A stretch of DNA of 64,000 nucleotides from Pseudanabaena sp. ELA607 (GTDB lineage: Bacteria; Cyanobacteriota; Cyanobacteriia; Pseudanabaenales; Pseudanabaenaceae): NCBI GenBank assembly GCA_037130765.1, contig JBAXSK010000001.1, positions 7,200 through 71,199 on the forward strand. The letters run 5' to 3'. Positions 10,456 through 57,408 of this stretch are shown one piece after another. The notes under the pieces are model-generated. The model was not told the DNA's origin. It ran no database searches and saw nothing but the letters and a program-made list of their open reading frames with translations. Each line of letters starts with the position of its first letter. Position 1 is the stretch's first letter. The position numbers and the translations under genes were made by a program.

Positions 10456-10779
10456 TCAAGCTAAATCTAATGGTTGGGCGCTTTTCATCACCGTTAGCTC
10501 TTGCTCTAACGCATTGACTTTTTCTAAGAGTTTCTGATTAGCATAGGTTAATTCCTGTGCTTTGGTGGACAGATAAGGATCTGACTCCCACCAGTTGATG
10601 CCGATTTCTTTGGCTTTGTCCACCGAAGCTACCAGCAACCGAATCCGAATGCTCAGTAGTTCCACGCTGCCGACGGAGACAGTAATATCGCCCGCTATAA
10701 CAATGCCTTTATCCAAGACTCGTTCGAGAATATCAGCTAGGGAGGAACCACTGGTGCTAGATTTAATGGCTTGATTCAT
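10456..10779 (-). CDS. gvpJ: gas vesicle protein GvpJ (GvpA/J/M family)
   Basis: GvpA-like core LADILERVLDKGIVIAGDITVSVGSVELLSIRIRLLVASVDKA. Its start overlaps the gvpN stop. Confidence 0.8.
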   Translation of the reverse strand: MNQAIKSSTSGSSLADILERVLDKGIVIAGDITVSVGSVELLSIRIRLLVASVDKAKEIGINWWESDPYLSTKAQELTYANQKLLEKVNALEQELTVMKSAQPLDLA

Positions 10780-11657
10780 TAGGGTACTTGGTCTAACAAT
10801 TTGGCAAGGGTTAATTCATCCTCTGGCGAACTACCATAGCGCGAAATCAAGATGTCAAAGCACAGGTCGCGAAATTCCGGTTCTTTGCCAGAAACGGCAA
10901 TGTTATGCTCGTGGCAAATCCGCCCAATGGCTAGGCACGCCCGCAAGCTAGAACTTTTATCCCCCACCACTTGCCGCCGGAAACCACGCACTAAGTTAAG
11001 TAATTTTAAGGCTTGGGTGCGATCCATGCCAACGCGGGTCACGAGAATTTGTTTTTCGGTGTCGATGTCGGCTTCACCAATATTGATCGTGATCATCCGA
11101 TCCAATAAAGCATCTTGGGTGGGATGAACCCCCGCATATTCTTCTTGATTGGAAGTAAAGATGGCCCGAAATTCAGGATGCACCCGAATGTATTCGTTTT
11201 GGGAACTATCGGGGGGCAAAACCAGCAATTTCTCTTCTAATACACTTAATAAAGCATTATTGACTTCGGGACGGGAGCGATTAAACTCATCATAAATGAG
11301 GGTAAAACCTTCTTTAGCTGCCAGGGTCAAGCGGGAGTCAATCCAGCTATGGCGCAGATCATCTTCCACTTTGAGGACGGAGTGAATATAGTTATCCACG
11401 ACTTTTTTGCGGGTGTAGCCAGCATTAGAGCCAATTAATTGGGAAGAGCGTAAATCTTCGTCCCCATAGAGCAATACCATCGGGCGGCCTAAAACCCCTG
11501 CTAAATGCATGGCTAGGGTGGTTTTACCTGTACCAGCAGGGCCGCGTAAATGCACCGCAAAACCTGATTGCAAATAACGGGAGGCTCGTTTGACGATTTG
11601 CTTGGTAAAATCGGTGCTGACAAACTGTTTCGGATTAGCGTGGAGAACTGTAGTCAT
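10779..11657 (-). CDS. gvpN: gas vesicle protein GvpN (AAA+ ATPase)
   Basis: Walker A GPAGTGKT and Walker B LIYDEFNRS. The size and the position after gvpA/gvpC are typical of GvpN. Confidence 0.9.
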   Translation of the reverse strand: MTTVLHANPKQFVSTDFTKQIVKRASRYLQSGFAVHLRGPAGTGKTTLAMHLAGVLGRPMVLLYGDEDLRSSQLIGSNAGYTRKKVVDNYIHSVLKVEDDLRHSWIDSRLTLAAKEGFTLIYDEFNRSRPEVNNALLSVLEEKLLVLPPDSSQNEYIRVHPEFRAIFTSNQEEYAGVHPTQDALLDRMITINIGEADIDTEKQILVTRVGMDRTQALKLLNLVRGFRRQVVGDKSSSLRACLAIGRICHEHNIAVSGKEPEFRDLCFDILISRYGSSPEDELTLAKLLDQVP

Positions 11658-11918
11658 GGATATTTTCAGCTAATAGGATGTATGGATTGATGCATCAGGG
11701 AATCGCGGACAGACTAGGGAATTATGGGTTTGCCGCTATGCACTGCCAGCCACTGACCGTTTCGCCCCGATAAACCTAGATTCCCGATTTATTTTGGAAG
11801 ATATTTACTGAATTTTCTGCAAAGCTAGTTTCAAAGGTGGTTTGAGGAATTGATGACTAGATTTTGTGCCCCTAGCCATCAATCATTCCATTACTCTAAG
11901 TTAATTACTGTTAATTAC

Positions 11919-12938
11919 TTAAAGTTCTGCCAACCGGAGCAATGCATTGAGAATTTCCGAGGGATCAACGCCTAACTTATTAGCTCCTTGAGCCAAGAGT
12001 TCCCGAGCTTGTTCCCGATCATTCATCACATCACCGAGGGAAAGGCTATGGGGTAAACTCGCCACATAATTAATGACAAAATCATCAATAACAGCCGCAG
12101 TAATCACAGGAGCAGGGGATTTCGCCGGTTTAGGCGCGGTGGCAACTGGGGAAATGACTTCTACTACTACCAGATCTGAGTTGTTACCCCATACGCTTTC
12201 ATGGAGTTGCTGGCGAAACTCTCGCAGATCTTGCCGTAGCTCGTTGCCCATAGCTTGGCGTTCTGCCTGTAACTGATTGAGCAGTAATTCTACCGACATT
12301 TCCAAAGCATGGTGTTGATTTTGCCGATGGTGAGCATCTTTGACCGAGGCTTCGCTTCTTTCTTGGGCAATCTGGAGCATTTCCGCAGCTACGGCTTGAC
12401 GGCGTTGGTTTGCTTCATCGCGACGATCACCTTGATCTTGGGCGGCTGCTGTAAGACGATTAGCTCGATTGGTTGCTAATTCTGCCTGTACCCTTTCGTG
12501 AAGTTCGATCACTTCTACCTTGCGACTAAAGGACTCCGCTTGGGCCATAGTCTGGCGATGGCGACTCACTTCTTGTAATTGCAACCGCACACCTAAAGTT
12601 CTGGCTTGGGATTCAGCTTGGCGCTGCTGTTGGTCGGCTGCGGATTGGCTGAGGCGTTCTTGCTGTAATTGTTGGAGAGATTTTTTCATGAGTTCGGCTC
12701 GTTCTTGAGATGATTCAAATCGTTGCTGCTGCTCTTGCCCGGTCACCGAACGACGCACCAGTTCCCCTGCTAATCTTTCCTGACGGCTTTGGTTTAGAGT
12801 TTCCTCTACCAATTTACCTAAATCTTTCTGTTCCTGTTGCCATGATTGTTGCTTGGCTCTCATGCTAGCGGCTAAATCATCACAGGCTTGTCGCCGCTGT
12901 TTACGGGCTATAGCAAAAGTCTGCATCAACGATGCCAT
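11919..12938 (-). CDS. GvpC-like Q/R/E-rich coiled-coil protein at the gvpC position (atypical)
   Basis: It lies between gvpA and gvpN. The N-terminus MASLMQ resembles GvpC starts. A long glutamine/arginine-rich helical region has only degenerate repeats, followed by a distinct C-terminal globular tail. Confidence 0.5.
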   Translation of the reverse strand: MASLMQTFAIARKQRRQACDDLAASMRAKQQSWQQEQKDLGKLVEETLNQSRQERLAGELVRRSVTGQEQQQRFESSQERAELMKKSLQQLQQERLSQSAADQQQRQAESQARTLGVRLQLQEVSRHRQTMAQAESFSRKVEVIELHERVQAELATNRANRLTAAAQDQGDRRDEANQRRQAVAAEMLQIAQERSEASVKDAHHRQNQHHALEMSVELLLNQLQAERQAMGNELRQDLREFRQQLHESVWGNNSDLVVVEVISPVATAPKPAKSPAPVITAAVIDDFVINYVASLPHSLSLGDVMNDREQARELLAQGANKLGVDPSEILNALLRLAEL

Positions 12939-13267
12939 AAGGTTTTCCTCTCTTCAAACCAATCAAACCACTCAAAACTAATGCATCTAAATCTTCAGTC
13001 ACCCAACCCAATTAACTCAGTTAACATTAACTAGTTAACTTCAATCTGATATATTCATGGCAAAATATTTGACCGATCAAATCCCATTTGTGGATGTAGG
13101 AGGATTGTAGCCATGATTCTAATTAGCCATGTTAAGTAAACATAACTGTAGACCGCCTAATCTTGATCAAGAACTCACAACAAATTCTTTTACGCCATTA
13201 TTTTCAGTCCCACTAATTAAGCTCATGGCGCTCCTCCTACCAAACCACACCGCGCAGTATTGGAGAC

Positions 13268-13486
13268 TTAGGCAGCAGGTACAGCCGCAGAAGTGGTCAA
13301 GCCAACTGCTTCAGCATATTTCAGATAAGTTTCTACGGAAGCGATCACAACACGAGCTTCGATGGATAACAGTTCAATCCCCACCAAAGATACGCGAACC
13401 CATGCATCAATTACGATACCTTTGTCCAAGATCCGATCTACCACTTCTGCCAAGCTGGAAGAAGAGTTTACTTTCTCGACTGCCAT
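13268..13486 (-). CDS. gvpA: gas vesicle structural protein GvpA
   Basis: 72 aa, with the near-canonical sequence [55 protein letters not shown]. Confidence 0.97.
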
Positions 13487-14101
13487 AAATTTTCTCCTTA
13501 GGTTCTCTCTTTAAAAAATTAACCAGTCATTAACAGATTACAGGCATAACACCTAAGCAACTATTAAGTTTCGGTGTTATGGGCCAACCAATATCTTTTG
13601 ACCAAATTTAGTCAGCAAGTTCTGTACCTAAATTCCTAACTACCATTGTCACCGCCTAATTAGTTTTATGCAACCGCAAAATTACTGATGGTTGATTAAT
13701 CTTTAGGATTGTGACATTAACACCCTCAATTCAAGATATATTACTTTGATAAAGTACACATAACTTGAGAAAGTGTGTCAAACTGGATGAGATCAAGATT
13801 TAATTCTTGCCAGTGTTTTTATTGTACGCCATTAAGATTTTAGTCTTGCTAATTTTTGATTTTATTAACACCGATTTTTTACATGATATTTTTTGATCTA
13901 TTATGATCTCATAATCATCAGATACTGAGTTTTTAGGCTATCATCGCTCAGATATTTAGTTTAGTATTTCCAGATTAGAGGAATCGTTGAATTGCGAAAT
14001 GATTGTCCAGATTATCTGGAAAAGATTGTATGTGAAAGATGATAAAAGATATGGCAAGTTGCATTATGAACGCAGACCAGCCGAGCAGACCACAAGCTAA
14101 A

Positions 14102-15865
14102 TTACCAAATTCCTAATAGAGTCAGATTCGTATCAGCGTAGTCTATATTTAAGATTTGACGATAGGGCATTAAACTTTGCTGCATACTTTCGAGAGATAC
14201 TTCTTGGTGATGCAGTGTCTGAATGAGATGATCTTTAATTGGTTTGAGGACTAGGCGGATCTGCATGGCGCGAATTGTATCAGGGGCATAGTCTTCGACC
14301 AAAACATGACTACGCATCAGATTAAGTTTGTTGGGATGGGGATGTATGACTAGTTCCGTAATCTCGCCGGTGACTGCTTCGATAAATTGCCGACTGACAT
14401 ACTTCATCACCACCGGTTCTAGGGCAAATTCCACTTCTCCAGCTTCAACATTTTTTTCAATTAATGACCGCCACCGTAAAGATTCTAAGGCATCAATTAA
14501 GGCTGAACCTGCCTGCGAATGCAGATCACGCCTGAGATTAACCAGAGAACTAGCTCTTCTTTTTAGGGCTAACCAATATAATACTGACCGCTCTAAATCT
14601 GAGAGTCGTGCCACCTGCTGATATAATAAACTGCGTAACACATCTCCTAAAGCCAATCCGGTTTGTTGCAGAAATTCCGTTACATTTCCATTAAATAATT
14701 CTTGAATAGTAGTAGCCACAATGCGTAATGCTGCCGGATTGCCGCGATATTGCTGCACTAGGGCGGTTAAACCATTAGTGCCAATCCCTTCAGATGTAGG
14801 AAATGCCGTAAAACCCCGCGCTTGTAATAGAGCTAAAGCCCCTGGTTGCCCTAATCCTGATAAGCGATAGGCTCTGGTTGCACCATCGGGAGTTTGGGCG
14901 GCGGAAATTTCCTTGGGTTGTTCGCGACTCAGGATAATCACACAACTTTGATGTCTTTCGGAACCAACTCGTTCTAATAATTCCCCATAACCATCGCATC
15001 CGGGACGATAGGAGCCAACTAATTCCCCATCTTGTAAAATGGTTTCCATATCGTCTAAAATAATCAGGCAGCGCTTGTGCCGTAATTGCTCAATCAAAGT
15101 TGAAACTGTCTGGGATGGCAGTTTATCTTTCGTCAAACCTTGTAATAATTCGGTAATTATTTGCGTGGTGGGTTGTGCGCCTCTTAAGGAACGCCAAATA
15201 CACACTTCAAAAGCCGGAACATTGGCATTGAGTGGAGGACTACCAGAAATCAAACTTTCCACTAGTTTGACCGCTAAACTAGTTTTGCCAATGCCCCCCA
15301 TGCCGCAAATGGAGACGAGTCGCGCTCGATCCGCCATAATCCAGCGCTGTAAAATTGATAAGTCAGCTTCTCGTCCGTAGAGATGGGGAATATCTGGCGC
15401 TTCTCCCCAATCCACTAGCACCCCACGAGAGGCTCCGCTAGATCCCACCGCTGGCATGGCTGCGGCAACAGTAGTCTGACGGGCATTTTCTGGTAAAACG
15501 GAATGCTGTCCTGAAGCAAAGCCATCGCCGACACTGGGAACCCGTTGTAAGCGATAACCTGCCGCATCTAACCAATCAGGCACTTTTTCCCAACGTAATG
15601 TATTGAGGGGGTGCTGGGTCAGGGCTTCAATCATGCGGTACAAGCCTTTATTGATTTCAACCCGCAAGGCTCCCGAAGTCCACGATAGTTTAAAGGCAAT
15701 TTGTCCGGGACGATAGCGGCACAACAACCCGCGTAAACAAGCTCGTTCAAAGGGTTTAAGTTCTTTACCATCGGCGGTTTCTAAGTCATGATAAAGCCGC
15801 GCCAAATCCCATTGCTGGGCAGCTTCAGCAAAAAATTGCTCAAAGTGGTCAAGATCATTGCTCAT
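14102..15865 (-). CDS. STAND NTPase: N-terminal LuxR/sigma-r4-like HTH plus NB-ARC domain, no C-terminal repeat sensor
   Basis: HTH-like segment LKPFERACLRGLLCRYRPGQIAFKL...RVEINKGLYRMIEAL. NB-ARC motifs are GMGGIGKTSLAV (Walker A), LIILDDME (Walker B), VIILSREQP and GNPAALRIVA. Confidence 0.8.
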   Translation of the reverse strand: MSNDLDHFEQFFAEAAQQWDLARLYHDLETADGKELKPFERACLRGLLCRYRPGQIAFKLSWTSGALRVEINKGLYRMIEALTQHPLNTLRWEKVPDWLDAAGYRLQRVPSVGDGFASGQHSVLPENARQTTVAAAMPAVGSSGASRGVLVDWGEAPDIPHLYGREADLSILQRWIMADRARLVSICGMGGIGKTSLAVKLVESLISGSPPLNANVPAFEVCIWRSLRGAQPTTQIITELLQGLTKDKLPSQTVSTLIEQLRHKRCLIILDDMETILQDGELVGSYRPGCDGYGELLERVGSERHQSCVIILSREQPKEISAAQTPDGATRAYRLSGLGQPGALALLQARGFTAFPTSEGIGTNGLTALVQQYRGNPAALRIVATTIQELFNGNVTEFLQQTGLALGDVLRSLLYQQVARLSDLERSVLYWLALKRRASSLVNLRRDLHSQAGSALIDALESLRWRSLIEKNVEAGEVEFALEPVVMKYVSRQFIEAVTGEITELVIHPHPNKLNLMRSHVLVEDYAPDTIRAMQIRLVLKPIKDHLIQTLHHQEVSLESMQQSLMPYRQILNIDYADTNLTLLGIW

Positions 15866-16478
15866 GGTGAGCCATAACAGCCGTGGTTGAAGATGTTTAT
15901 CTCAAATTAATTTTATTAAACTGAATTTGATCGCAGCTTAACGAACTGTGTTGATATTGACACAATCCTGCGGCATAAACCTTGATTGATGATCAACTCA
16001 AGCCAAGATTATAGGAAAAATTGGTGCAAAGGGATCTCTTGGCATCTGGGAAAAAATTACCTCTGGTGTGTTGCATTGAGATGTTGTACACCATGATTCA
16101 GAGTCCGCTGTGCTAGTTCTTGATGATTAAAAGTTTTTGTGCTTAGTAAATTTTTGTAGTTGAAATTTTTGTGGTTAATATTGATGCCTCATCAAATTAG
16201 AAACGACTGTATCAATTGGCAGACATTTAACTAAATCTGAAGTTACGCCACAATTCACCTAACACACTGTTAGGTAAATCACCCATTGCCCCAGCCGCAA
16301 CTCCTAACAGCCTGCAAGGTGATCTAATTAGGTTACCCACCTATACTCAAAATATGCCGCTAGAGATTGTGAATATTTACCCTAAATATCTTAAATACTT
16401 GTCTATTTTGCCTGCCAAACTTTTACCCGCAAAACTGTTCAACCAACCTGCACGGGATGCACCGCCCCAACTGAGATC

Positions 16479-17273
16479 ATGTATAGCTTAACTTCTCCCC
16501 CAACCAAAAGTGCTTCCTTCTCTAGCGCTGACCGCAACACCACCCTAACCCTACTCAAACAATATCGCCAAGCCCCCCAAGCGCAGATCCGTAACCGCTT
16601 GGTACGCCTCAATTTGGGTTTGGTAACCAAAGAAGTCAGCTTTTGGGCTAAACCTCACACAGAACTTTACGAAGATTTATTACAAGTTGGCGCGATGGGT
16701 TTACTGGGCGCAATTGAGCGGTTTGAAATTGAGCGCGGTTATGCTTTTAGTTCATTTGCAGTGCGTTACATTCGCGGCGAAATCCAACACTATTTGCGGG
16801 ATAAAACCAACACCGTCAAAATGCCCCGCCGTTGGCAAGAAATTTATCAGCAAGGTTTACGGCTAGCCCAAAAGCTGCGCTCTACCTTGGGACGGGAACC
16901 TTCCACGACTGAATTAGCCGCCGCTTTAGAAATTACTCCGGCACAATGGCAAGAAATTCGCCTCGCCCACCAAAACCGCGAACCTTTGAGTTTAGATGCA
17001 CCAATTAAGCAAGATGATAAAGATGCCACTAGCCTGTTAGAGTTGATGCCCGATCCCCACAGCTATAATGAGCATCATGATTGGTCAGGCATTCATCAAG
17101 CTTTAGATCATCTTGAAGGACGTACCCGCATGATTATGGAATTCGTGTTCCTTGAAGATCGCCCCCAAAGAGAAGTAGCTATGATGCTGGGAGTTAGTGC
17201 GGTTACAGTATCACGCCAAGTCAAAAAAGGCTTAGAAACCTTACGTTCTGTCATGGTGGCACAGGCGTGTTAG
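16479..17273 (+). CDS. group-3 sigma-70 family sigma factor (SigF/SigB-type)
   Basis: Region 2 (DLLQVGAMGLLGAIERFE, FSSFAVRYIRGEIQHYLRD) and region 4 HTH (REVAMMLGVSAVTVSRQVKKGL). The exact start is uncertain. Confidence 0.85.
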   Translation: MYSLTSPPTKSASFSSADRNTTLTLLKQYRQAPQAQIRNRLVRLNLGLVTKEVSFWAKPHTELYEDLLQVGAMGLLGAIERFEIERGYAFSSFAVRYIRGEIQHYLRDKTNTVKMPRRWQEIYQQGLRLAQKLRSTLGREPSTTELAAALEITPAQWQEIRLAHQNREPLSLDAPIKQDDKDATSLLELMPDPHSYNEHHDWSGIHQALDHLEGRTRMIMEFVFLEDRPQREVAMMLGVSAVTVSRQVKKGLETLRSVMVAQAC

Positions 17274-18190: not shown

Positions 18191-18633
18191 CTAGAATTCT
18201 TGACTTGGCAAAATTGGTTCAATTAACTTGAATAGTTCAGGAATATCTTTGTTTGTAGTTTTCCAAACTTCATTTAAGTCAGTATCATCATAATCATGGA
18301 TTAAGTTGTCTCTCATGCCTGCCATTACAGCCCTTGCCTGATTTACTCAGTACACAGCTAGACTTCAAGCTTTCGATCTTTCTGGTGCAAAATCATACTT
18401 AATGATTGAGGAATAGGCTGTAATGAGCAAGGAATGTTTAAATTCTGTTTTCTAAATTCCTGAGAAATCCTCTTAGTAGCTTCACCAATAATCAAGAGTT
18501 GATACAAAATAGATGACTGAGTTTTATCATCATCCATAAACTCACTTTTGTTCAAGCCCTGCTTATATTCTAGGATTTTATAAGCAGCTTTAGAGATGTC
18601 AATTAGTGATGTAACGTCTTTATTTGTTGACAT
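18191..18633 (-). pseudogene. hepT: HepT (DUF86/HEPN) toxin gene disrupted by a roughly 100-bp insertion
   Basis: The N-terminal part is ORF 18358..18633. The C-terminal part, AGMRDNLIHDYDDTDLNEVWKTTNKDIPELFKLIEPILPSQEF, is in another frame at 18191..18320. It carries the RxxxxHxY motif seen in paralog 21091..21444. Confidence 0.7.
18323..18425. mobile_element. MITE-like insertion with 10-bp perfect terminal inverted repeats inside hepT
   Basis: CATTACAGCC at 18323..18332 and GGCTGTAATG at 18416..18425 bracket about 100 bp. This segment separates the two halves of the HepT reading frame. Confidence 0.5.
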
Positions 18634-18682
18634 AAAACGTCTTTATTTGTTGACATAAAACGTCTTTATTTGTTGACATAAA
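18614..18682. repeat. perfect 23-bp tandem repeat x3 (acgtctttatttgttgacataaa)
   Basis: Three identical units at 18614, 18637 and 18660. Each unit contains both the MNT stop and the HepT start (ATGTCAACAAATAAAGACG on the coding strand). Confidence 0.9.
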
Positions 18683-18992
18683 TTGTTTGTGCGGTATTCA
18701 AAATTTCTTTTTTGCGTATCCAATTATGACTTCGCTCGATCGCGTTTTTATTAATTAGATCAACTTTCCTATTCATAATTAAAGTTAATTCTTGCTGCAT
18801 CTGGACGCGATCAAATAAGCTCCAGTCAGATTTTTCAGAAAACTTCACTAGGCAATCGATGTCACTATTTGAGCCGAAGTCATCGCGCAGAACGGAACCA
18901 AAAAGGGCAAATTCGACGATCTGCCAACGCTGACAAAATTCGCGGATCTGTGGCATGGGGAGGTTAATATTTGTGACTATTTGAGTATTCAT
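18666..18992 (-). CDS. mntA: MNT-family nucleotidyltransferase antitoxin
   Basis: The motif FGSVLRDDFGSNSDIDCLV (GS...DxD) is present. It is a close paralog of 21416..21757. Confidence 0.85.
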   Translation of the reverse strand: MNTQIVTNINLPMPQIREFCQRWQIVEFALFGSVLRDDFGSNSDIDCLVKFSEKSDWSLFDRVQMQQELTLIMNRKVDLINKNAIERSHNWIRKKEILNTAQTIYVNK

Positions 18993-19047
18993 TGTGTGTT
19001 TCCTCCAAAGGCTTGTCTAACTTGCAATAAAACTTACGATCATTTTT

Positions 19048-19317
19048 CTAAGGGAAGTAACGATAAAATTCTTTGCGGTGTAATGTGCGGATGACTTCTA
19101 CTGTATTGCCAGAAATTTCTATGCCAATGCGATAGTCACCAACTCTAATGCGGTAACGGGTTGAATATCCTTGCATGGCTTTTATGTTCGATAGTTCCTC
19201 TAAGTTCTTAGCTTCAGGCAAAGTTGTAAAGGCAATTTCATAGATGCGTTGATATACTGATGAGCCTTTCAGGTTTTTGAGGTCTTTTAAAAATGACTGG
19301 CGATACTTTACTTCCAT
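19048..19317 (-). CDS. RelE/ParE-family type II toxin
   Basis: 89 aa. The pattern YRIRVGDYRIGIEISGNTVEVIRTLHRKEFY is typical of RelE/ParE toxins. It sits 14 nt downstream of a small antitoxin-like ORF. Confidence 0.8.
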   Translation of the reverse strand: MEVKYRQSFLKDLKNLKGSSVYQRIYEIAFTTLPEAKNLEELSNIKAMQGYSTRYRIRVGDYRIGIEISGNTVEVIRTLHRKEFYRYFP

Positions 19318-19331
19318 TTTAGTCTTCCAAT

Positions 19332-19553
19332 TTAATCCTCTAAAAAGGCTAGAGCTTCGGCAGGGGAGTAAAGAGGAGTGTTTTTACCTTCATCCATTGC
19401 TTTATTGAGACAATAATCTTCTATGGCTTCGCTAAGATTTTCTAGAGAGATGTTGTCGGTGGGTAAAAGTTGCCGCCAAATCTCGATGGGAATGACAACT
19501 GCGGTGGGCTGTCCTTCTTGGTTAGTTATATACTCAAGGTTTAATAGGGGCAT
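19332..19553 (-). CDS. putative antitoxin partnered with the RelE/ParE toxin
   Basis: 73-aa acidic protein immediately upstream of the toxin. Its N-terminus resembles Phd/YefM-style antitoxins (QPTAVVIPIEIWRQL). Confidence 0.6.
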   Translation of the reverse strand: MPLLNLEYITNQEGQPTAVVIPIEIWRQLLPTDNISLENLSEAIEDYCLNKAMDEGKNTPLYSPAEALAFLED

Positions 19554-19649
19554 AACATTTACCTTGGTGAATGCTTTTCATAAAATCTGCTTTCATTATA
19601 TCAAAAGTTTTTGTGTTACTCATGCGCTTAACGATTCTCTTAAATCGTG

Positions 19650-20015
19650 TCAATTTTCTCTCTGCTCAAAAAACTCTTCGGCATAAACGATCTGTTCAGC
19701 CGCTTTGTCAAGAGTTACTTCATTTGATTTTCCGTAGTCGCCCATTTGTCTTAGCTCCTGTGCTTCAATTAAGTAGCGATGAAAATGAGTTGGCACTTCG
19801 CCTTCTTTAACGAATTCGCGACCAAAACCTGAGATCACAGCAGAGTGTTTTGAATAGGAAAGATTTTTGTCTAACAAGATGGCAGAAACCACATAGAACA
19901 TGGTGTAGTAACTTCGGGCGGCGGAGTATCCTGCATATCCATTATTCAGAAGTAATTTGGCGGCGGCGAGGCTATCACGTGCTTGTTGTAAGAGTTCGTC
20001 TTTGTCTGTGGTCAT
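19650..20015 (-). CDS. HEPN domain protein (toxin-like partner of the upstream nucleotidyltransferase)
   Basis: 121-aa helical protein with ELRQMGDYG near the C-terminal third. It overlaps the nucleotidyltransferase gene by about 40 nt. Confidence 0.8.
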   Translation of the reverse strand: MTTDKDELLQQARDSLAAAKLLLNNGYAGYSAARSYYTMFYVVSAILLDKNLSYSKHSAVISGFGREFVKEGEVPTHFHRYLIEAQELRQMGDYGKSNEVTLDKAAEQIVYAEEFFEQREN

Positions 20016-20343
20016 AGAGGTTAATTCCTTCTCGGCGGATGTTTAATAATAATGGGCTAATGTGATTTAGATATTCTTTTTCATTGATAAATAGACAGCT
20101 TACAACGGTGTCATATTGGAGAGAGATTTTTGAGATGATTTCGCCTGTGTTACTAATTTCATCGCAGGGTTTAACTTTACCGTGCAGGACTACAAGTATA
20201 TCAATATCAGAGTCTGGGGTTGCTTCGTTTCTTGCTTGAGAGCCATAGAGCGTTATGTAGGCTAGGCGATCACCATATAGCTCCTTTAAGCCTAGTTTTA
20301 ATTCGTGCAATGTTGGCTGGATATTATTTAAAGTTGGGTTCAT
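19975..20343 (-). CDS. nucleotidyltransferase domain protein (MNT-like antitoxin)
   Basis: The motif YGSQARNEATPDSDIDILVV (GS...DxD) is present. Confidence 0.85.
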   Translation of the reverse strand: MNPTLNNIQPTLHELKLGLKELYGDRLAYITLYGSQARNEATPDSDIDILVVLHGKVKPCDEISNTGEIISKISLQYDTVVSCLFINEKEYLNHISPLLLNIRREGINLYDHRQRRTLTTST

Positions 20344-20380
20344 TTTCTGGAAAAAGTATTGCTGGTATTGGACTTTGATT

Positions 20381-20683
20381 CTATTTATCTAGAAATGCTA
20401 GAGCTTCAGTGTGTGAATAAATTGGACTATTTCTACCTTCATCAATTACTGTGCCTTTCATTCTTAAAGCATCAGCACAAAACTCTATCTCACCTTCCCA
20501 GTAAATATATCGACCTTTTTTGTCTAAACTGACTTTAGCAAAAAAGTTAGGTTCTTGAAGTGGTTGAAATACCTTGCCTTGTTGAATCACTGGGATGAAA
20601 TCAGCTACAACGCTTATTCCATCAGAATATTCTAGAACTAACTTGAAGTTCTCAATTGGCGAGACTCGACTGATTTTATACAT
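20381..20683 (-). CDS. DUF2442 domain protein
   Basis: The likely true start is MYKISRVSPIENFKLVLEYSDG at 20683; the tracked 134-aa form would overlap the upstream gene. The pattern is DUF2442-like, and it sits 11 nt after a DUF4160 gene. Confidence 0.7.
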   Translation of the reverse strand: MYKISRVSPIENFKLVLEYSDGISVVADFIPVIQQGKVFQPLQEPNFFAKVSLDKKGRYIYWEGEIEFCADALRMKGTVIDEGRNSPIYSHTEALAFLDK

Positions 20684-20694
20684 GGTTATTTTCT

Positions 20695-20955
20695 CTAATC
20701 TAAAGGTTCTAGCTTGTGAGGTGATTTTCCTGATTGACAAAGTTCCCAGTTTTCCATTAGTTCCTGTTGATGTAAGGCAATCCATTCTAAAAACATCGAT
20801 CGCACTCGATTAGGAACCTTGCCTTTGATGATGGAGATCGGTGAGATACCGACAATGATTTCATGTTCGCCATAGGATGCATGGATATGTGGTGGGGTAG
20901 GATCGTCATAGAATACCCTGATTGTAATTCCATAAAATTCTGAAATGATTGGCAT
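20695..20955 (-). CDS. DUF4160 domain protein
   Basis: The N-terminus MPIISEFYGITIRVFYDDPTPPHIHASYGEHE is the typical DUF4160 signature. Confidence 0.8.
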   Translation of the reverse strand: MPIISEFYGITIRVFYDDPTPPHIHASYGEHEIIVGISPISIIKGKVPNRVRSMFLEWIALHQQELMENWELCQSGKSPHKLEPLD

Positions 20956-20986
20956 AAGCTGTTTTTGATTGAAGTTATTCCCATTG

Positions 20987-21057
20987 TATCAAAAGTCTTT
21001 GTGTTACTCATGCGCTTAACTATTCTCTTAAATCGCATCAACTATTTGAGTATTCAT
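20987..21057 (-). pseudogene. collapsed remnant of a two-gene cassette
   Basis: It reads MNTQIVDAI-stop, which resembles the start of 22225..22635 (MNTQLVDSI). This is followed by ...VKR-ATGA-MSNTKTFDTM. The 49-nt stretch 20987..21035 recurs at 19599..19647. Confidence 0.4.
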
Positions 21058-21090
21058 TGTATGTTTCCCCCAAAGGCTTTGTAAATGATA

Positions 21091-21444
21091 TCAATCAAGT
21101 TCTGCGTTATCTTCTGTTGGTAAAAGCGGTAGTATAAATTCTAGAAGATTAGGGATTTGTGAATTTGCAACTTGCCAAGTTAAGTTCAAATCAACTTGAT
21201 TATAATCGTGTATTAGTTTATCGCGCATTCCCGCGATTTGCTTCCATAGTATTTCTGGATGGGCTTCTCGAAATTCAGGCGATAGGCGTTTGACGATTTC
21301 TCCCAAAATCGCAATTTCGTATACAACCGAAAAGTGAATGCGCTTTTCTGCTAAAAATTGTTGCTTGGTAGCTCCTTCCATCAGTTCAGCAATATTAGAA
21401 CAGACTGTGGCAATATCAAGCAGATAGGCTGGATCTCGTTTCAT
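21091..21444 (-). CDS. hepT: HepT (DUF86, HEPN-type) toxin
   Basis: GMRDKLIHDY (RxxxxHxY) motif. It overlaps the upstream MNT gene by 29 nt. Confidence 0.85.
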   Translation of the reverse strand: MKRDPAYLLDIATVCSNIAELMEGATKQQFLAEKRIHFSVVYEIAILGEIVKRLSPEFREAHPEILWKQIAGMRDKLIHDYNQVDLNLTWQVANSQIPNLLEFILPLLPTEDNAELD

Positions 21445-21757
21445 AAATCACCTGTGCAGTATTTAAAATTGCTTTGCGTCGAATCCAATTTGGGCTGTCT
21501 ATAACGGCTTGCTTGCTAACTAAGTCAACTTTTCGATGAAATATATCTTCTAGTTGCCATTCCATTGTTACCAAGTCTAGAAGACTATTTTGTGAGTTAG
21601 GAGCAAATACGACCAAGCAATCGATGTCACTATCGGGTCGAAAGTCATCGCGCAGGACGGAACCAAAGAGGGCAAATTCGACGATCTGCCAACGCTGACA
21701 AAATTCTCGAATCTGTGACATGGGGAGATTAATGTTTGTGATTAATTGAGTATTCAT
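21416..21757 (-). CDS. mntA: MNT-family nucleotidyltransferase antitoxin
   Basis: The motif FGSVLRDDFRPDSDIDCLV is present. It is a paralog of 18666..18992. Confidence 0.85.
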   Translation of the reverse strand: MNTQLITNINLPMSQIREFCQRWQIVEFALFGSVLRDDFRPDSDIDCLVVFAPNSQNSLLDLVTMEWQLEDIFHRKVDLVSKQAVIDSPNWIRRKAILNTAQVIYETRSSLSA

Positions 21758-21799
21758 TTCATCGCTCCTTGCTCAAAGGCTTTGTTAATCAATTTTAGT

Positions 21800-22228
21800 C
21801 TAAGTTTCTTTCGGAGGATGCCAACCTGCGCTAATCCATTCTCGTCTAACCATCAATGCACAGGTATTGTTAAGTTGCAAAGCCAGAACTGTAGCGCGTC
21901 CACAGGCTGTACGCCCGACAATATATGTACCATCTTCTGACCAAGTAAAATGTCGATGCCATTTTTGGGTGCGAGGGTTGAATAACTGCACTAAACGATC
22001 TGTTTCTGGATCTTGTCTATGGGTTTGAGTTCCTTTAAAGTTGTTGCATAATCTACAGGCGAGCCATAGGTTCTTTTCGTCATCCGTTCCGCCTTGAGAT
22101 TTGGGAATAATGTGATCAATTTCTAGCATTCCCAAAACATATTTTTGCTGACTACGACAATAGCCACAGCAATCTTTTGCTGCTGTCCGAACCCTAGCTC
22201 TAGTTTCTTCGGAAATCTTGCTACTCAT
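21800..22228 (-). CDS. HNH endonuclease
   Basis: CCGYCRSQ...EIDHIIPKSQGG...NLWLACRLCNNFKG matches the HNH/zinc-hook pattern. Confidence 0.85.
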   Translation of the reverse strand: MSSKISEETRARVRTAAKDCCGYCRSQQKYVLGMLEIDHIIPKSQGGTDDEKNLWLACRLCNNFKGTQTHRQDPETDRLVQLFNPRTQKWHRHFTWSEDGTYIVGRTACGRATVLALQLNNTCALMVRREWISAGWHPPKET

Positions 22229-22635
22229 GCGCTTAATGGTTGTCTTAGTCCACGTTTGACGCTTTCATTTAAGGCTTGGGCTTTGCGAAGTAGTCCTGCT
22301 TGATAAATTTCCATTAACATTTCTAGTTCGGATTGCTCGTCTGTGGTCAGGGTTCTTTCTTGTTGGGTTTGTAAGAGTTGACTTAATCTTTGATCTTGAG
22401 ATGGTTCCATCTGAAGTTCGGTGAGGGTGATTATTTGTTGATCGCTTAGGGTTGATAGGTGGGCTAAGTTTTGGTTAGGTTCTTGTTTGGGGAATTCGGG
22501 TTGAGACGGGGATATTTGGGTGTTGGGAATTGGGCTGAAGAGGTCAGTTAGTAACTTGTCTCTTAGTAATGAGCGATCTTCTTCGGGGAGGGACTTGATT
22601 AACTGGGCGATCGAATCGACTAATTGAGTATTCAT
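22225..22635 (-). CDS. hypothetical acidic/Gln-rich protein translationally coupled to the HNH nuclease
   Basis: 136 aa. Its stop overlaps the HNH start in ATGA. The C-terminal helical segment is LTTDEQSELEMLMEIYQAGLLRKAQALNESVKRGL. No family recognised. Confidence 0.5.
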   Translation of the reverse strand: MNTQLVDSIAQLIKSLPEEDRSLLRDKLLTDLFSPIPNTQISPSQPEFPKQEPNQNLAHLSTLSDQQIITLTELQMEPSQDQRLSQLLQTQQERTLTTDEQSELEMLMEIYQAGLLRKAQALNESVKRGLRQPLSA

Positions 22636-22668
22636 TGAATATTTCCTCCTATGGTTTTTTTAACACGA

Positions 22669-25206
22669 TCAATTTGTTCCACTTTTATGATTTATTTGAA
22701 GACTTTTTCGCCTTTCAATTTCAGAGATCGGCAGCAAAAGATTTGCTCGTCTTTTTGCTTTCATTTCTTGACTGGCGTTTGGTGGATCGGTAAGATTTAG
22801 GCATTCAGCTAAAATTGTATTGGCATTGTAATAATTCTTTAATGCTTGCCTTGCTTCAGAAGTCATTCCGTTTTTTGGGTTTTGCCAGTCATGCCCGATC
22901 TGACGATGTTCAATCATAACTTTTCGTAGGTCTTCAGCCCATAAATGACAAGCTTCTGAACCATCCCATTGATCGCCATCGATTCCAAATGATTGCGGTA
23001 TATGCTGCTCCAAATTTTTAAGAGAATTCTCTAATTCGTGATATCCCAAATATTCTGCTAATTCAATTGCTTTTATTATATAGCTTCGGTTGTGAGGAAG
23101 TCTCGGTGCATTTTCATGAAGTTGAAGGCGATCATTATTTGATTTTGAATAATCCATTGCTCTTGGTAAATCTATATCTAATTGACATTCAACTAGACGA
23201 TCAAGCATTATGTAAAGACCATCTCGTGTTTCCTTTTCTATTTCAAGATTCTTTTTAGCTGTAATTGACAATATCCCCTCCAATTGATTGTCTATAAGCA
23301 ATTCATTTCCTATAGAATTTGGGTTAGAACAATTTGTATCTGTATAATCATTTAAAATGTCTTCTATAGTTATTGCTCTAATTGTTGCCTCCCCATACTT
23401 TGTTTTTCCTTCAATAGTCTGAGATTTTTTGAGTAGGCTTAATAGTATTTCTTGTAAATATGGATATCCCACAATTATGGCAGTGATTGTATCTTCCATT
23501 TGCTGTAAAAAACTATTTGGCTCGGATAACATTTCAACTGTAAACAAGAAAATTTCACGCCATTGGCGATCACCAAGATTCATAAACAGTTTCTGAAGAT
23601 CTTCAGTACCATTTTCAACACGATTCGCAATATCTCTCGCAACAAAATATTCATGCCAAGTCAAATGTCCAAAATAGTATTCATCATGATCTATAGTTAG
23701 CAATCCACTTCTATTAGTAATTTGGTCGTGCAATAGCTCTCTTGTACAATTTTCCTCATCACTCAAACCTTGCAAGCTGTTAATGCCAAGAAATTCATTT
23801 AGGTATCGTTGCAATTCATATTCTAAAAAATCTTTCTTCTCTTTAAATGTTTGTCTTGCTAAATACAAAACAAAATCATTAAAGCTATTATTTGATTTAG
23901 ATGTAAAATTTTTATTTTTATTCCACTCATGTACTAAAACATCAAACGCATACTCATAAAGCTGATAGCGTTTATCGGCAAGTTTTCCATTCTTAAAAAA
24001 TGTCTTACAAATTAAAGTGAGATTAATGGGGGTTTGAGCCAAGGCTTTGATTTGAGATTTATTTTTATCTTGAATTGCAGAAATTAATTCATTAGATGTT
24101 CTATCAGTATAGTGTTTATCTTTATATTCTTGATAATATTGTTTAATAAAGCTCTCAATAGCTACATCATCCAAATCAACAATATTAATATACAAGTATC
24201 TAGAATCATCTCGTTTTGCTGATGCCGAACGACAGGTAATCACAGCTTTATTTCGAGGGTATTTGGTTAAAATAAATTCATCAATGTATTTTTCTACTTT
24301 CTGCCTGTAATCCATTGACACTTCATCTAGACCATCTAATAAAATTAATAGATTTCCTTTATTTAAAATATACTCTATTTCTTCTGGTGAAACTCCTAAC
24401 GGGTTCCAACTGTTGACAATCACATCAAATATTTTTGATTTTTCTGTACTCTGCCAATCTTCAGTCCTAAGTTTAAAGTAAAAAGGTACTAAATCAGGAA
24501 ATAGTTCACCTGTAATACAGTGCATTGCTAAGAATTTCAGAGAATTTGTCTTACCTGCACCTGCTTTTCCTAGCAAAGCGATCGGTTTTATGATTGTTTT
24601 ACTTTGCTCGTAGTGGCTTTTTAGACAATCAATCAAAGGCATACGCCTCTTAGAGTTTGAGTCGCAAGAAATTTCAACATGAAAATCCTTAACATTTCTA
24701 TGTTGACCATCAGCAAATCGAATATCCTCACACCGTAGCTCAATCCAATCTCTAACTTTGTCTCGCACATTTTGGACTATGTTATTTCCATGACTATTGC
24801 GATCGCTTCCAAGTGTTGTTACTTCTTGAGTGCGATTGGGAGTAAGGATATTTTGGGAATTAGTTGGGGGGTGGGGGCGGCTTAATGTTTCGCTATCAAC
24901 TCCATCAGGACTAATATCGGGGTGAACAAAATCTGGCATATGTTGCCGAAATAAATAAACCAAATTATCCTGATGTGAATTTCCACGTCCAAATTTTATG
25001 CCGAAGTGATTGCACACCTCTTTCAGTCTGTGAGATACGATAGTAGTATCTTCAGGATTACATACATCTTGTCTTTTGCGTATAGCTTTTGCTATTTCTT
25101 TCTTAGTTTTTCCATCACGGATCAAAAGATTTACAAAAGTCAATAATTTGTCATTGACAGGTTTTTGCAATTCTTCAAACTTAGCTAAAAACTGCTGTTT
25201 GTCCAT
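22669..25206 (-). CDS. NACHT-family STAND NTPase with N-terminal HTH-like module
   Basis: Walker A LLGKAGAGKTNS and Walker B LLILLDGLDEV. The N-terminal roughly 90 aa (KKEIAKAI...IVSHRLKEVCNHFGI) resemble the HTH heads of 14102..15865 and 55675..57408. The C-terminal roughly 400 aa are helical with no obvious repeats. Confidence 0.85.
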   Translation of the reverse strand: MDKQQFLAKFEELQKPVNDKLLTFVNLLIRDGKTKKEIAKAIRKRQDVCNPEDTTIVSHRLKEVCNHFGIKFGRGNSHQDNLVYLFRQHMPDFVHPDISPDGVDSETLSRPHPPTNSQNILTPNRTQEVTTLGSDRNSHGNNIVQNVRDKVRDWIELRCEDIRFADGQHRNVKDFHVEISCDSNSKRRMPLIDCLKSHYEQSKTIIKPIALLGKAGAGKTNSLKFLAMHCITGELFPDLVPFYFKLRTEDWQSTEKSKIFDVIVNSWNPLGVSPEEIEYILNKGNLLILLDGLDEVSMDYRQKVEKYIDEFILTKYPRNKAVITCRSASAKRDDSRYLYINIVDLDDVAIESFIKQYYQEYKDKHYTDRTSNELISAIQDKNKSQIKALAQTPINLTLICKTFFKNGKLADKRYQLYEYAFDVLVHEWNKNKNFTSKSNNSFNDFVLYLARQTFKEKKDFLEYELQRYLNEFLGINSLQGLSDEENCTRELLHDQITNRSGLLTIDHDEYYFGHLTWHEYFVARDIANRVENGTEDLQKLFMNLGDRQWREIFLFTVEMLSEPNSFLQQMEDTITAIIVGYPYLQEILLSLLKKSQTIEGKTKYGEATIRAITIEDILNDYTDTNCSNPNSIGNELLIDNQLEGILSITAKKNLEIEKETRDGLYIMLDRLVECQLDIDLPRAMDYSKSNNDRLQLHENAPRLPHNRSYIIKAIELAEYLGYHELENSLKNLEQHIPQSFGIDGDQWDGSEACHLWAEDLRKVMIEHRQIGHDWQNPKNGMTSEARQALKNYYNANTILAECLNLTDPPNASQEMKAKRRANLLLPISEIERRKSLQINHKSGTN

Positions 25207-55674: not shown

Positions 55675-57408
55675 ATGGACTACCAAGTTAATGGAGCGCC
55701 AATTCCATTCAATTCAGACAACTTATTGGCAGAGAGTTTAGCCTTAGTTGCTGAAGATTATAAAATTTCTCCGGCTGAGCATCAGGCTTTGCTCTTAGTT
55801 CTCTCTGGCAGGAGCATCGATGATATTGCTGAAATGCTCAATCTCAAACCCGTAACTGTACGCAAGCGTTTGGGTGAAGTTTATCAAAAGTTCGGGATTT
55901 ATGGCGCAGGCCCCGGCAAACTGGCTAAGTTGCAGCATATGCTGTTGACTTTGAGCCAAACCCATGCGAGCGGAAATACTTCCTCCCACAGGCCCAAATA
56001 TGCCGAGGTTAACAGTCAATTTGACTCGCAACCCCGTCAGTCAGCGCGTCGTGGTCGGGCTGCTGAGCGTTCTGGTAGCAGTTATGGGACAAAATCAGCT
56101 ACTGCGACTAGTCCTAGTCGAGCTTTTTCGGCTAAGGGTAGCGAAACAACTGCCCCTACTTTTGGCAAAAAAACAGCCACTGGAGGAGCGCCCATTGATT
56201 TACGGCAACTACGCATTAACATACCTGTACTAGATGAGTCATCATCAGACGGAGTTGATGCGCCTAGTGTTCTTGATGCGAATGCCGATGCTAGTTCGGT
56301 TCCGGCGATTATCTCCAGCTATACCAAAGAACTCACCTCAGCACTGATCGGACAATACGATTTAATGGTGATTTGGGGCCCGTTTGGCATTGGTAAATCC
56401 TATCAACTCAAGCAAATAGCTGATGTTTTGTCTTACAGCGCTCGGTCGCAATGGGGGCATAACTTGCTATGTTGGCGCTATGTTTGCGATGGTAAAGCAA
56501 CGGTAAAAGAAGTGGCGGAGGCTTGGCAAGCTTGGCATCAAAACATTGATCCCCATGCCGCCCATGACCCCGACTTAATTTTGATCCCCGAAGAGGCTAA
56601 TGAAACTCTTGCAGAGAAAGGAAATACCGAAAATATCCCGCCTGCGGAAGGAATTAGTAACGCTGCCTCTGGCGAAGATGGCTCTAACAGCGATCCCGAC
56701 TATAGCCAAAACCTGATTGCCCAATGGTGTGCCCTAAGTGCGCAAGAGCCACTGATTCTGTGTTTAGATGATTTGCCCAATACCCTAGAATGGCAGCACT
56801 TTTTGCAGCAATGGGTAGCGGTGACGGAAAAAATGCCGCAATCTCCCAAGCTGTGTTGTACCTGTGCTGCTAAAACTACTTGGCTAGCCAGTTTAGCTGC
56901 TAGTTCAGCGCGGTTATACCTGTGGGAATGTGAAGGCATCGACTTGGCTATTGCCCAGAAATGTCTGGCAAAATGGCAACTCCAAGGCGACCTAAGCCAT
57001 TGGCAAACCTTGGTGTACTTATATCGGGGTTCGCCGCGTCACCTCAGACGCACTGCGGATCTGATTAATAATTTATTTAGTGGCAAGATTCATGAATTTT
57101 TGCTGTTAGATGAAATCTATGTCGATGAAGCAACCCAAAAACAGTTACAGGAGCAAATTCGTCGCTGCGAACCCATCCAACTAAAGATATTAGCGACTTT
57201 GGCTAAGGCTAGTAACCCCTTGACCCTATCCCAATTAGGGCAAAATATTGGCAAAATGCCGATCATGGAGCGGTTAAATCATCTTGAAGCGTTGCGCTGG
57301 CAAAGTCTGATTGAAATTTATCCCACCAGTGATGATCATCCGCAAACCCGTTATGGTTTGCCCCCCGTGGTGCGTGAAGTTTACCAACAGGCACTGACGG
57401 CGGCATAA
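55675..57408 (+). CDS. N-terminal LuxR-type HTH plus P-loop (STAND-like) NTPase
   Basis: HTH: ISPAEHQALLLVLSGRSIDDIAEMLNLKPVTVRKRLGEVYQKFGI. An S/T/A-rich linker of about 120 aa follows. Walker A is WGPFGIGKS and Walker B is LILCLDDLP. Confidence 0.7.
   Translation: MDYQVNGAPIPFNSDNLLAESLALVAEDYKISPAEHQALLLVLSGRSIDDIAEMLNLKPVTVRKRLGEVYQKFGIYGAGPGKLAKLQHMLLTLSQTHASGNTSSHRPKYAEVNSQFDSQPRQSARRGRAAERSGSSYGTKSATATSPSRAFSAKGSETTAPTFGKKTATGGAPIDLRQLRINIPVLDESSSDGVDAPSVLDANADASSVPAIISSYTKELTSALIGQYDLMVIWGPFGIGKSYQLKQIADVLSYSARSQWGHNLLCWRYVCDGKATVKEVAEAWQAWHQNIDPHAAHDPDLILIPEEANETLAEKGNTENIPPAEGISNAASGEDGSNSDPDYSQNLIAQWCALSAQEPLILCLDDLPNTLEWQHFLQQWVAVTEKMPQSPKLCCTCAAKTTWLASLAASSARLYLWECEGIDLAIAQKCLAKWQLQGDLSHWQTLVYLYRGSPRHLRRTADLINNLFSGKIHEFLLLDEIYVDEATQKQLQEQIRRCEPIQLKILATLAKASNPLTLSQLGQNIGKMPIMERLNHLEALRWQSLIEIYPTSDDHPQTRYGLPPVVREVYQQALTAA

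Follow-up and report, generated by a model that had tools for sequence, protein, structure and literature searches.

What does a short NTPase of the STAND type (signal transduction ATPases with numerous domains) control when its gene lies between gas-vesicle genes on one side and a sigma factor gene on the other? This question is raised by a locus of the cyanobacterium Pseudanabaena sp. ELA607 (Pseudanabaenaceae; GenBank assembly GCA_037130765.1), of which we analyzed a window of 64,000 nucleotides (nt) (contig JBAXSK010000001.1, positions 7,200 to 71,199 of the forward strand; coordinates below are those of the window). The gene in question, hereafter the STAND gene, occupies 14102..15865 on the minus strand and, according to its open reading frame (ORF) and translation, encodes a protein of 587 amino acids (aa) in which a predicted helix-turn-helix (HTH) head precedes an NB-ARC core. 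An earlier note, made from the sequence alone, had proposed that this protein might regulate the gas-vesicle genes, beginning with the adjacent gvpA. The evidence gathered here points to the other neighbor, and we consider the chances about even that the protein is a MalT-like, nucleoside triphosphate (NTP)-switch activator dedicated to the neighboring SigF-type sigma gene, which it would control via a unique two-box operator.

Palindromic boxes upstream of the sigma gene

The proposed target, a SigF-type (group-3) sigma gene (16479..17273, plus strand), matches the Pfam domains for sigma regions 2, 3 and 4 as well as the NCBIfam model PRK07408 (324 bits), and is divergent from the STAND gene with a gap of 613 nt. 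A word search over five sigma-adjacent intergenic regions returned a common element, ACCTAACA-N3-TGTTAGGT, which was seldom reached by shuffled sequences. In the window, a perfect palindrome, CCTAACA-CAC-TGTTAGG (distal box, 16258..16274, no strand assigned), lies upstream of both genes, 205 nt from the ATG of the sigma gene and 393 nt from that of the STAND gene. A second, proximal box, CCTAACAGCCTGCAAGG (16303..16319, no strand assigned), is found 45 base pairs (bp) nearer to the sigma gene, with its left half intact and its right, promoter-side half degenerate. The perfect palindrome is unique in the 4.56-Mb genome of ELA607, where we counted 1, 0 and 10 sites with zero, one and two mismatches, against 0, 0 and 14, respectively, for a reversed-pattern control.

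These boxes are conserved well beyond this genome. Among 71 Pseudanabaenaceae genomes from 12 genera (including ELA607, G000, and its one congener, G004), the exact 12-base core CCTAAC-N5-GTTAGG occurs in 60 genomes at 63 sites, i.e., about once per genome, and 57 of these sites, in 57 genomes including G004 and all those of genus g8, are 74-345 nt upstream of the sigma orthologue. The six remaining sites comprise one before the STAND orthologue in each of G013 and G015, one in G060 on a contig where no sigma gene was called, and three in other places. With the reversed pattern as control, 0-5 sites were obtained per family genome, so that the position of the core is special and not its count. 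In G004 and in the g8 genomes with the core at the sigma gene, the STAND gene lies hundreds of kilobases away or on another contig. In a wider class sample (30 family genomes and 271 genomes from other families), the 14-base box was present in 27 of the 30 family genomes and in four of the 271 others, which is chance level, and none of these four sites is near a sigF-type or HTH-STAND gene. The second box was recovered at up to three mismatches in 16 of 22 sigma upstream regions, and in the remaining six (G001, G007, G008, G068, G069 and G024-type variants) inspection by eye shows a copy that has degenerated further; in the small-genome genera, the two boxes are about 26-30 bp apart. In all 22 regions, as read by eye, the proximal box abuts the pattern AGGTG.. 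/ 17 nt / TAnnnT. The sigma promoter predicted in the window, also from its pattern by eye (16319..16347, plus strand), combines a -35-like GTGATC (16319-16324) and a -10-like TATACT (16342-16347) separated by 17 nt; if it holds, the proximal box would be centered near -43 and the perfect box near -88.

The STAND gene itself is tied to this arrangement in part of the family. STAND and sigma genes are divergent neighbors with the boxes between them in eight genomes from five of the 12 genera (G000, G003, G009-G011, G064-G066), and two Tumidithrix records (L002, L003) show the same divergent pairing. In genus g8 (48 genomes), the upstream neighbors of the STAND gene are instead a phycobilisome-like protein and a GHL10 hydrolase. 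A tree of 22 STAND orthologues groups its rows by genus; the sigma-adjacent rows, which include sister groups of g8, are scattered and imply at least three changes. This fits an ancestral STAND-sigma pairing that was lost several times, on a midpoint-rooted tree with an unresolved backbone. In genus g7, with about 0.9 Mb between the two genes, three of four genomes have a box some 90-100 nt ahead of the STAND gene (0, 1 and 2 mismatches in G015, G013 and G012, none found in G014); its half-sites are conserved, its center is variable and, in G012, it directly precedes a TTGACA hexamer. The sigma upstream regions of the three readable g7 genomes retain a degenerate box (1-2 mismatches). Boxes at both a regulator's own gene and its target are the usual signature of an autoregulated factor.

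A separate observation concerns the surroundings of the sigma gene in one g8 genome (G061, L145), in which it is flanked by a 250-aa leucine-rich repeat (LRR) protein and an alpha/beta hydrolase. Going by Pfam and length only, other g8 genomes (L081-L087) have both families upstream of their STAND orthologue. These shared flanks may be the trace of a former proximity of the two genes.

The sigma orthologue is present in all 71 family genomes at E<=1e-60, both paralogue tiers counted. Two group-3 sigma matches are present in 64 genomes, a short one (about 264-290 aa), to which that of the window belongs, and a long one, extended by about 90 aa at its N-terminus, which scores higher on the SigF model and is encoded at C23:10500-12255 (L150) in ELA607. 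The two paralogues of ELA607 are 53% identical and both match the same NCBIfam SigF subfamily model (324 bits for that of the window vs. 376.6 bits); the sigma factor of the window can hence not be assigned to SigF or SigJ of model strains. The boxes were seen only at the short sigma gene; the long one is absent from the exact-box matches, its upstream regions not having been scanned directly.

Two other ways of reading the palindrome were considered. An RNA hairpin was rejected, as the stem letters are invariant across the 12 genera, with only the center varying, as compensatory changes are absent and as a second, half-degenerate copy exists. As for known operators, NtcA recognizes GTA-N8-TAC. 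The box is unlike the cyanobacterial sequences with which it was compared, namely the NtcA operator, the SigF promoter and the J-box (PMC6495340); in Synechocystis, SigF recognizes TAGGC/GGTAA promoters and autoregulates, according to the accessible part of the report (PMC2532724).

The STAND protein and its distribution

The protein is composed of a predicted LuxR/sigma-4-type HTH head, a disordered linker, an NB-ARC NTPase, a winged helix and a short conserved helical tail. Its core (aa 169-387; 14705..15361, minus strand) matches NB-ARC in Pfam with an E value of 9e-10 and 38.6 bits (gathering cut-off 23.5), and NACHT with an E value of 1.5e-6. Translation recovers the three motifs announced in the earlier note, GMGGIGKTSLAV at aa 187-198, LIILDDME at aa 266-273 and GNPAALRIVA at aa 375-384; they contain a Walker A motif of the form GxxGxGK[ST] (GMGGIGKT, aa 187-195; 15281-15304, minus strand) and a Walker B motif of the form hhhhDD (LIILDD, aa 266-272). 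Since Walker A (G188, G190, G191, G193, K194 and T195), Walker B (D271 and D272), R314 and G375-N-P377 are invariant in 31 aligned orthologues, the NTPase is probably active. A profile of these orthologues matched, in the PDB, the plant nucleotide-binding LRR receptors (NLRs) ZAR1, Roq1 and Sr35 as well as the archaeal STAND protein PH0952. The full-length AlphaFold2 (AF2) model (pLDDT 79.8) had as best Foldseek matches Apaf-1, CED-4 and plant NLRs (E values from 2e-11 to 1e-8), together with MalT (8bob) and PH0952 (6mfv). The protein is thus a STAND NTPase of the NB-ARC (AP-ATPase) clade.

Downstream of the core, a helical domain with a GxP motif is followed by a winged helix (aa 423-482, with strands at 469-482 in the model) and by a conserved helical tail (aa 484-587), both delimited from the secondary structure of the AF2 model (14105..14599, minus strand). 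What we take to be the place of the MHD-type histidine in the winged helix reads LEPVV, E483 and P484 being invariant. About 100 aa of helices form the end of the model, and no C-terminal repeat sensor (tetratricopeptide repeat (TPR), WD40 or LRR) was found in Pfam, in agreement with what had been noted earlier. Within the tail, V523, E524, D525, A527, Q535, I536, R537, L540, P542 and K544 are invariant in the 31 orthologues, and a conserved motif, Y..NL.LLG[LI]W, terminates it.

Regarding the head (aa 1-108; 15542..15865, minus strand), which has 36 invariant columns among 16 orthologues, its assignment relies on an AF2 model and on structural alignment. Folded alone, it gave a confident model of four helices (pLDDT 85, pTM 0.79), and its nearest folds in VIA-align were LuxR/NarL/GerE-type domains, then sigma region 4. 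The best Z scores were 7.0 for NarL, 6.8 for DosR and 6.7 for VqmA and RcsB (65-67 residues each, root-mean-square deviation 2.2-3.0), the top rows, including ChrA and StyR, ranging from 6.2 to 7.0 over 65-69 aligned residues and lower values being obtained for GerE (5.2) and sigma-4 chains (5-5.9), all on a scale on which VIA-align itself grades Z below 8 as middling. A Foldseek search of the PDB returned the same LuxR/sigma-4 families, but with E values all above 0.6 and nothing at E<=0.001. With E<=0.01 as threshold, neither Pfam nor NCBIfam assigned the head to any HTH family, GerE and Sigma70_r4 included, and nothing relevant was matched when the PDB was searched with a profile of this domain. 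The "LuxR-like HTH" of the earlier note is therefore a reasonable description of a modeled fold, with middling structural scores and no sequence-family match. A complex prediction for two copies of the head scored 0.00 against a mark of 0.42, which counts neither for nor against binding.

In one cyanobacterial family, the Pseudanabaenaceae, the STAND gene is a single-copy orthologue passed on vertically. It was identified in 68 of the 71 genomes (E<=1.5e-99, 48-84% identity, open frames of 528-612 aa), well separated from a next tier of paralogues starting at E 5.7e-81 (at most 44% identity, mostly frames of 700-1280 aa); the three genomes without it are 82, 83 and 97% complete. Full-length homologues named "NB-ARC domain-containing protein" come from Pseudanabaena, Tumidithrix, Thalassoporum and Synechococcus PCC 7502. 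Synteny was derived from this genome-wide search, as only three of 80 loci obtained by a pattern-based search were full-length orthologues, the others being mostly NB-ARC paralogues. In the class sample, a profile of the head matched all 30 family genomes at E<=7e-47 and 60 of the 271 others, with no value better than 3e-30 among the latter. The idea of an expanded family of HTH-NB-ARC regulators, put forward in the earlier note, is borne out by these matches, and Sigma70_r4_2 plus NB-ARC architectures are already catalogued in cyanobacteria, in the part of that survey available to us (PMC11119718).

The other-family homologues take several forms. Short HTH-NB-ARC proteins of about 450-550 aa, tail-less and often present once per genome, are 31-40% identical over residues ~10-495, and stand-alone heads of about 175 aa as well as forms of 1200-1300 aa also occur.

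Proposed control of the sigma gene or of other targets

In the mechanism that we propose, the NTP-bound STAND protein would oligomerize, by analogy with MalT and Apaf-1, and its HTH heads would occupy the high-affinity palindrome CCTAACA-N3-TGTTAGG and, cooperatively, the weaker box abutting the -35 element. The occupied boxes would switch the divergent sigma gene on, by a class-II-like activation comparable to that of LuxR at the lux box. A strong distal site combined with a weak site overlapping the -35 suits a cooperative, oligomerizing activator, hence our proposal of an NTP-dependent loading of the two boxes. As the protein has no repeat sensor, the input signal would probably act through the conserved C-terminal tail, for which V523-K544 and the Y..NL.LLG[LI]W motif are the best candidates, or through a partner protein.

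That the STAND protein binds the boxes is what we infer from its predicted LuxR-type head, from its position as divergent neighbor in five genera and from the location of the boxes between the two genes. LuxR-type heads bind palindromes as dimers. Moreover, the occurrence of a single box in the genome suggests a dedicated local regulator, and the genes of such regulators are usually beside their target. Alternatively, the boxes could be owned by another transcription factor, the STAND protein being a mere neighbor (in g7, a co-regulated one) with other targets. We regard this main alternative as rather improbable, although the lack of a box before the STAND gene in g8 and G004, and the missing sigma link of homologues in other families, speak for it. 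In the seven genomes with the STAND gene elsewhere, the surroundings of the sigma gene hold no other conserved DNA-binding regulator, and, in the class sample, the box has the same range as the strict orthologue, limited to the family.

Several points weigh against control of the sigma gene by the STAND protein. The HTH assignment is a predicted fold with Z of 5-7, and the boxes, whose binding by the STAND protein is deduced, could belong to some other factor, of the LuxR type or unrelated. The promoter elements were read by eye, and a simple sigma-70 scan did not call them. No box was detected at up to three mismatches upstream of the STAND gene in 10 g8 loci (of 48 genomes) or in G004; autoregulation is therefore not general, and most genomes lack a direct positional link. 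The short HTH-NB-ARC homologues of other families have a sigF-type neighbor at 0 of 20 loci, so that the STAND-sigma link, if real, is family-specific. Finally, related genomes are not independent: a single genus of 48 genomes dominates the 57 with a core at the sigma gene, and the boxes of g7 represent one evolutionary event.

With an NB-ARC core as in bacterial NLR-related defense proteins, and a toxin-antitoxin island and a NACHT gene 2.5-9 kb away, the protein might also be an NLR-like conflict or anti-phage protein using its HTH as effector or adaptor. This appears to us the least probable of the explanations considered. Indeed, no PADLOC family was matched, and the gene is not patchy: it is single-copy in 68 of 71 genomes, including genomes of 2.3-2.8 Mb, with a tree that follows the genera. 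It also lies outside the island, from which the sigF-type gene and a carbonic anhydrase gene separate it.

Gas-vesicle control, for which the earlier note had relied on position, was examined across the family. The gvpA gene (13268..13486, minus strand; Pfam Gas_vesicle, NCBIfam GvpA 135.7 bits) does lie 615 nt downstream of the STAND gene on the same strand, as had been noted together with the divergent sigma gene on the other side, and it is followed on that strand by a 339-aa ORF, gvpN and gvpJ; we place it outside the proposed system. In the congener G004 (L001), the same gene order is kept down to lepA. The STAND protein could then regulate the gas-vesicle genes via the 615-nt region upstream of gvpA, or, mostly, through an indirect route involving the sigma factor, and this route is conceivable considering that gvpA of Nostoc punctiforme is driven by SigJ, a group-3 sigma factor, as far as the available part of the source goes (PMC6495340). 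We consider such a role very unlikely. Synteny with the congener weighs little, since the proteins are 82-84% identical. While gvpA was detected in 56 of the 71 genomes and coexists with the STAND orthologue in 53, the two are adjacent in only two of them (G000 and G004), being 0.6-3.9 Mb apart in 10 single-contig genomes and on separate contigs in 41. No gvpA, gvpN, gvpJ or 339-aa ORF was found within about 8 kb on each side at 20 orthologous loci from other genera, and the gene downstream of the STAND orthologue is not conserved outside this genus. Moreover, none of the 15 genomes in which gvpA had no match lacks the orthologue, seven of these genomes being at least 95% complete, and the conserved box is absent from 13487..14101 at up to two mismatches. 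Orthologues beside gvpA, which the earlier note had proposed to look for elsewhere, are thus confined to this genus, and the gas-vesicle link fails outside it because linkage to gvp genes is not conserved there. The position beside gvpA is a recent genus-level rearrangement without demonstrated regulatory meaning.

The accompanying statement that no equivalent regulator is established for cyanobacterial gvp clusters needs softening, a gvpA regulator, SigJ, being in print for Nostoc punctiforme, where the accessible parts of two papers describe a SigJ-dependent gvpA promoter (PMC6495340; PMC7204071). In our literature search, which did not extend to supplements, no paper was found on the STAND protein, on the box or on an NB-ARC regulator of cyanobacterial gvp or sigF genes.

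The gas-vesicle genes of this genome are split. The gvpA gene, the 339-aa ORF, gvpN and gvpJ occupy 10456-13486, two GvpL/GvpF-family genes are located on other short contigs (C368, C281) and no further Gas_vesicle-family gene was found in the genome. The 339-aa ORF (11919-12938, minus strand), between gvpA and gvpN, is rich in Q, E and R, coiled-coil-like and 78% identical in the congener; it matches no Pfam or NCBIfam family and has no tandem repeat at the DNA level, of the 33-residue type or other, and its position and composition would suit a divergent GvpC. After gvpJ come genes for a response regulator, an unknown ORF, a histidine kinase and a second response regulator, then lepA. A simple promoter and terminator scan over 12900-16600 gave counts at the level of shuffled sequences, with no terminator after the STAND gene.

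Beyond the sigma gene, a beta-carbonic anhydrase gene precedes the toxin-antitoxin-like island (18358-25206, minus strand), which contains three MNT/HepT-type pairs, ParE/RelB, a HEPN and nucleotidyltransferase pair, DUF2442 and HNH genes, then a gene for an 845-aa NACHT plus NCH2 protein, without PADLOC match. The earlier note had counted three HTH-STAND proteins in the window, and this count stands only in part. The second HTH-STAND-like protein, far more divergent, is the 577-aa one encoded at 55675..57408 (plus strand). It has a Sigma70_r4_2 HTH (aa 32-66; 26.1 bits for a cut-off of 25.7), a P-loop-like stretch GPFGIGKS and a winged-helix region similar to that of the STAND protein (E 4e-12), but no NTPase match in Pfam. 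The 845-aa NACHT protein (22669..25206), on the other hand, has no Pfam HTH match. Elsewhere in the window (32624-37445, minus strand), an ExeM/NucH-type extracellular nuclease appears to be split over two overlapping ORFs, positions 1-162 of the model corresponding to the C-terminus of an 828-aa ORF (34959-37445) and positions 160-546 to the N-terminus of an 801-aa ORF (32624-35029), which a frameshift, a sequencing error or breakage of the gene could explain.

Known STAND regulators and significance

STAND transcription factors are established with MalT, GutR and AfsR, and are well understood for a few models only. MalT binds several boxes cooperatively, just upstream of or overlapping the -35 element. 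MalT of Escherichia coli (PDB 8bob) combines an NTP-dependent STAND core with a LuxR-type HTH, a combination also predicted for the STAND protein. However, its HTH is C-terminal and it has a large helical-repeat sensor for maltotriose, whereas here the HTH is N-terminal, the sensor is lacking and the core is of the NB-ARC (AP-ATPase) type; the domain order of the MalT family (NTPase, arm, sensor, LuxR-type HTH) is thus not that of the STAND protein. GutR of Bacillus subtilis and the large Streptomyces antibiotic regulatory proteins of the AfsR type have an N-terminal DNA-binding head followed by an NB-ARC-type NTPase and are dedicated activators of neighboring genes. Both GutR and AfsR carry C-terminal TPR sensors, and AfsR has an OmpR-type winged helix and BTAD as its head. 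The head-then-NB-ARC layout is common to them and to the STAND protein, whereas the TPR sensors are theirs only and the head of AfsR is not LuxR-type.

A comparable architecture in the same phylum is that of the "SigR"-type proteins, which, in the accessible part of the survey, associate a sigma-4/LuxR-like head (Sigma70_r4_2) with NB-ARC and sometimes TPR_MalT or WD40 (PMC11119718); they differ in being catalogued there by Pfam architecture, repeat-bearing and without proposed target or operator, while the STAND head escapes Pfam. In haloarchaea, the P-loop protein GvpD is encoded beside gvp genes, as is the STAND protein here. GvpD, however, lacks an HTH and exerts its effect on the activator GvpE, the gvp linkage of the STAND gene is not conserved, and no GvpD match was found in Pfam for the STAND protein, which hence does not belong with GvpD. 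Regarding LuxR, its operator, the lux box, is a palindrome of about 20 bp beside the -35 element, and its switch is an acyl-homoserine lactone bound to the N-terminal domain. The location of the operator is comparable to that predicted for the proximal box near -43, but the switch of LuxR is not an NTPase.

To our knowledge, no STAND transcription factor has been characterized in cyanobacteria, though the architecture is common there. What would be new here is a short, sensor-less form, a single-copy orthologue present throughout a family, and a concrete operator and target. Since the adjacency to gvpA results from a recent rearrangement, it provides no lead to gvp regulation in cyanobacteria at large, and the outcome for gas vesicles is negative but useful. 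This locus offers an unusually clean test system, in which the regulator is single-copy, the perfect operator occurs once per genome and the sigma gene is the one candidate target. More tentatively, and with somewhat less confidence than for the activator itself, we suggest that a STAND-operator-sigma module may be universal in one early-branching family, with a sensor-less, LuxR-headed switch as dedicated activator of a family-specific group-3 sigma gene through two boxes unique in each genome and, in this genus, where the module lies near gvpA, possibly buoyancy under the same switch. In model strains, the group-3 sigma class controls pili, motility, secretion and hormogonium traits. If our proposal is true, an NTP-driven switch would hence stand atop a group-3 sigma cascade in the Pseudanabaenaceae.

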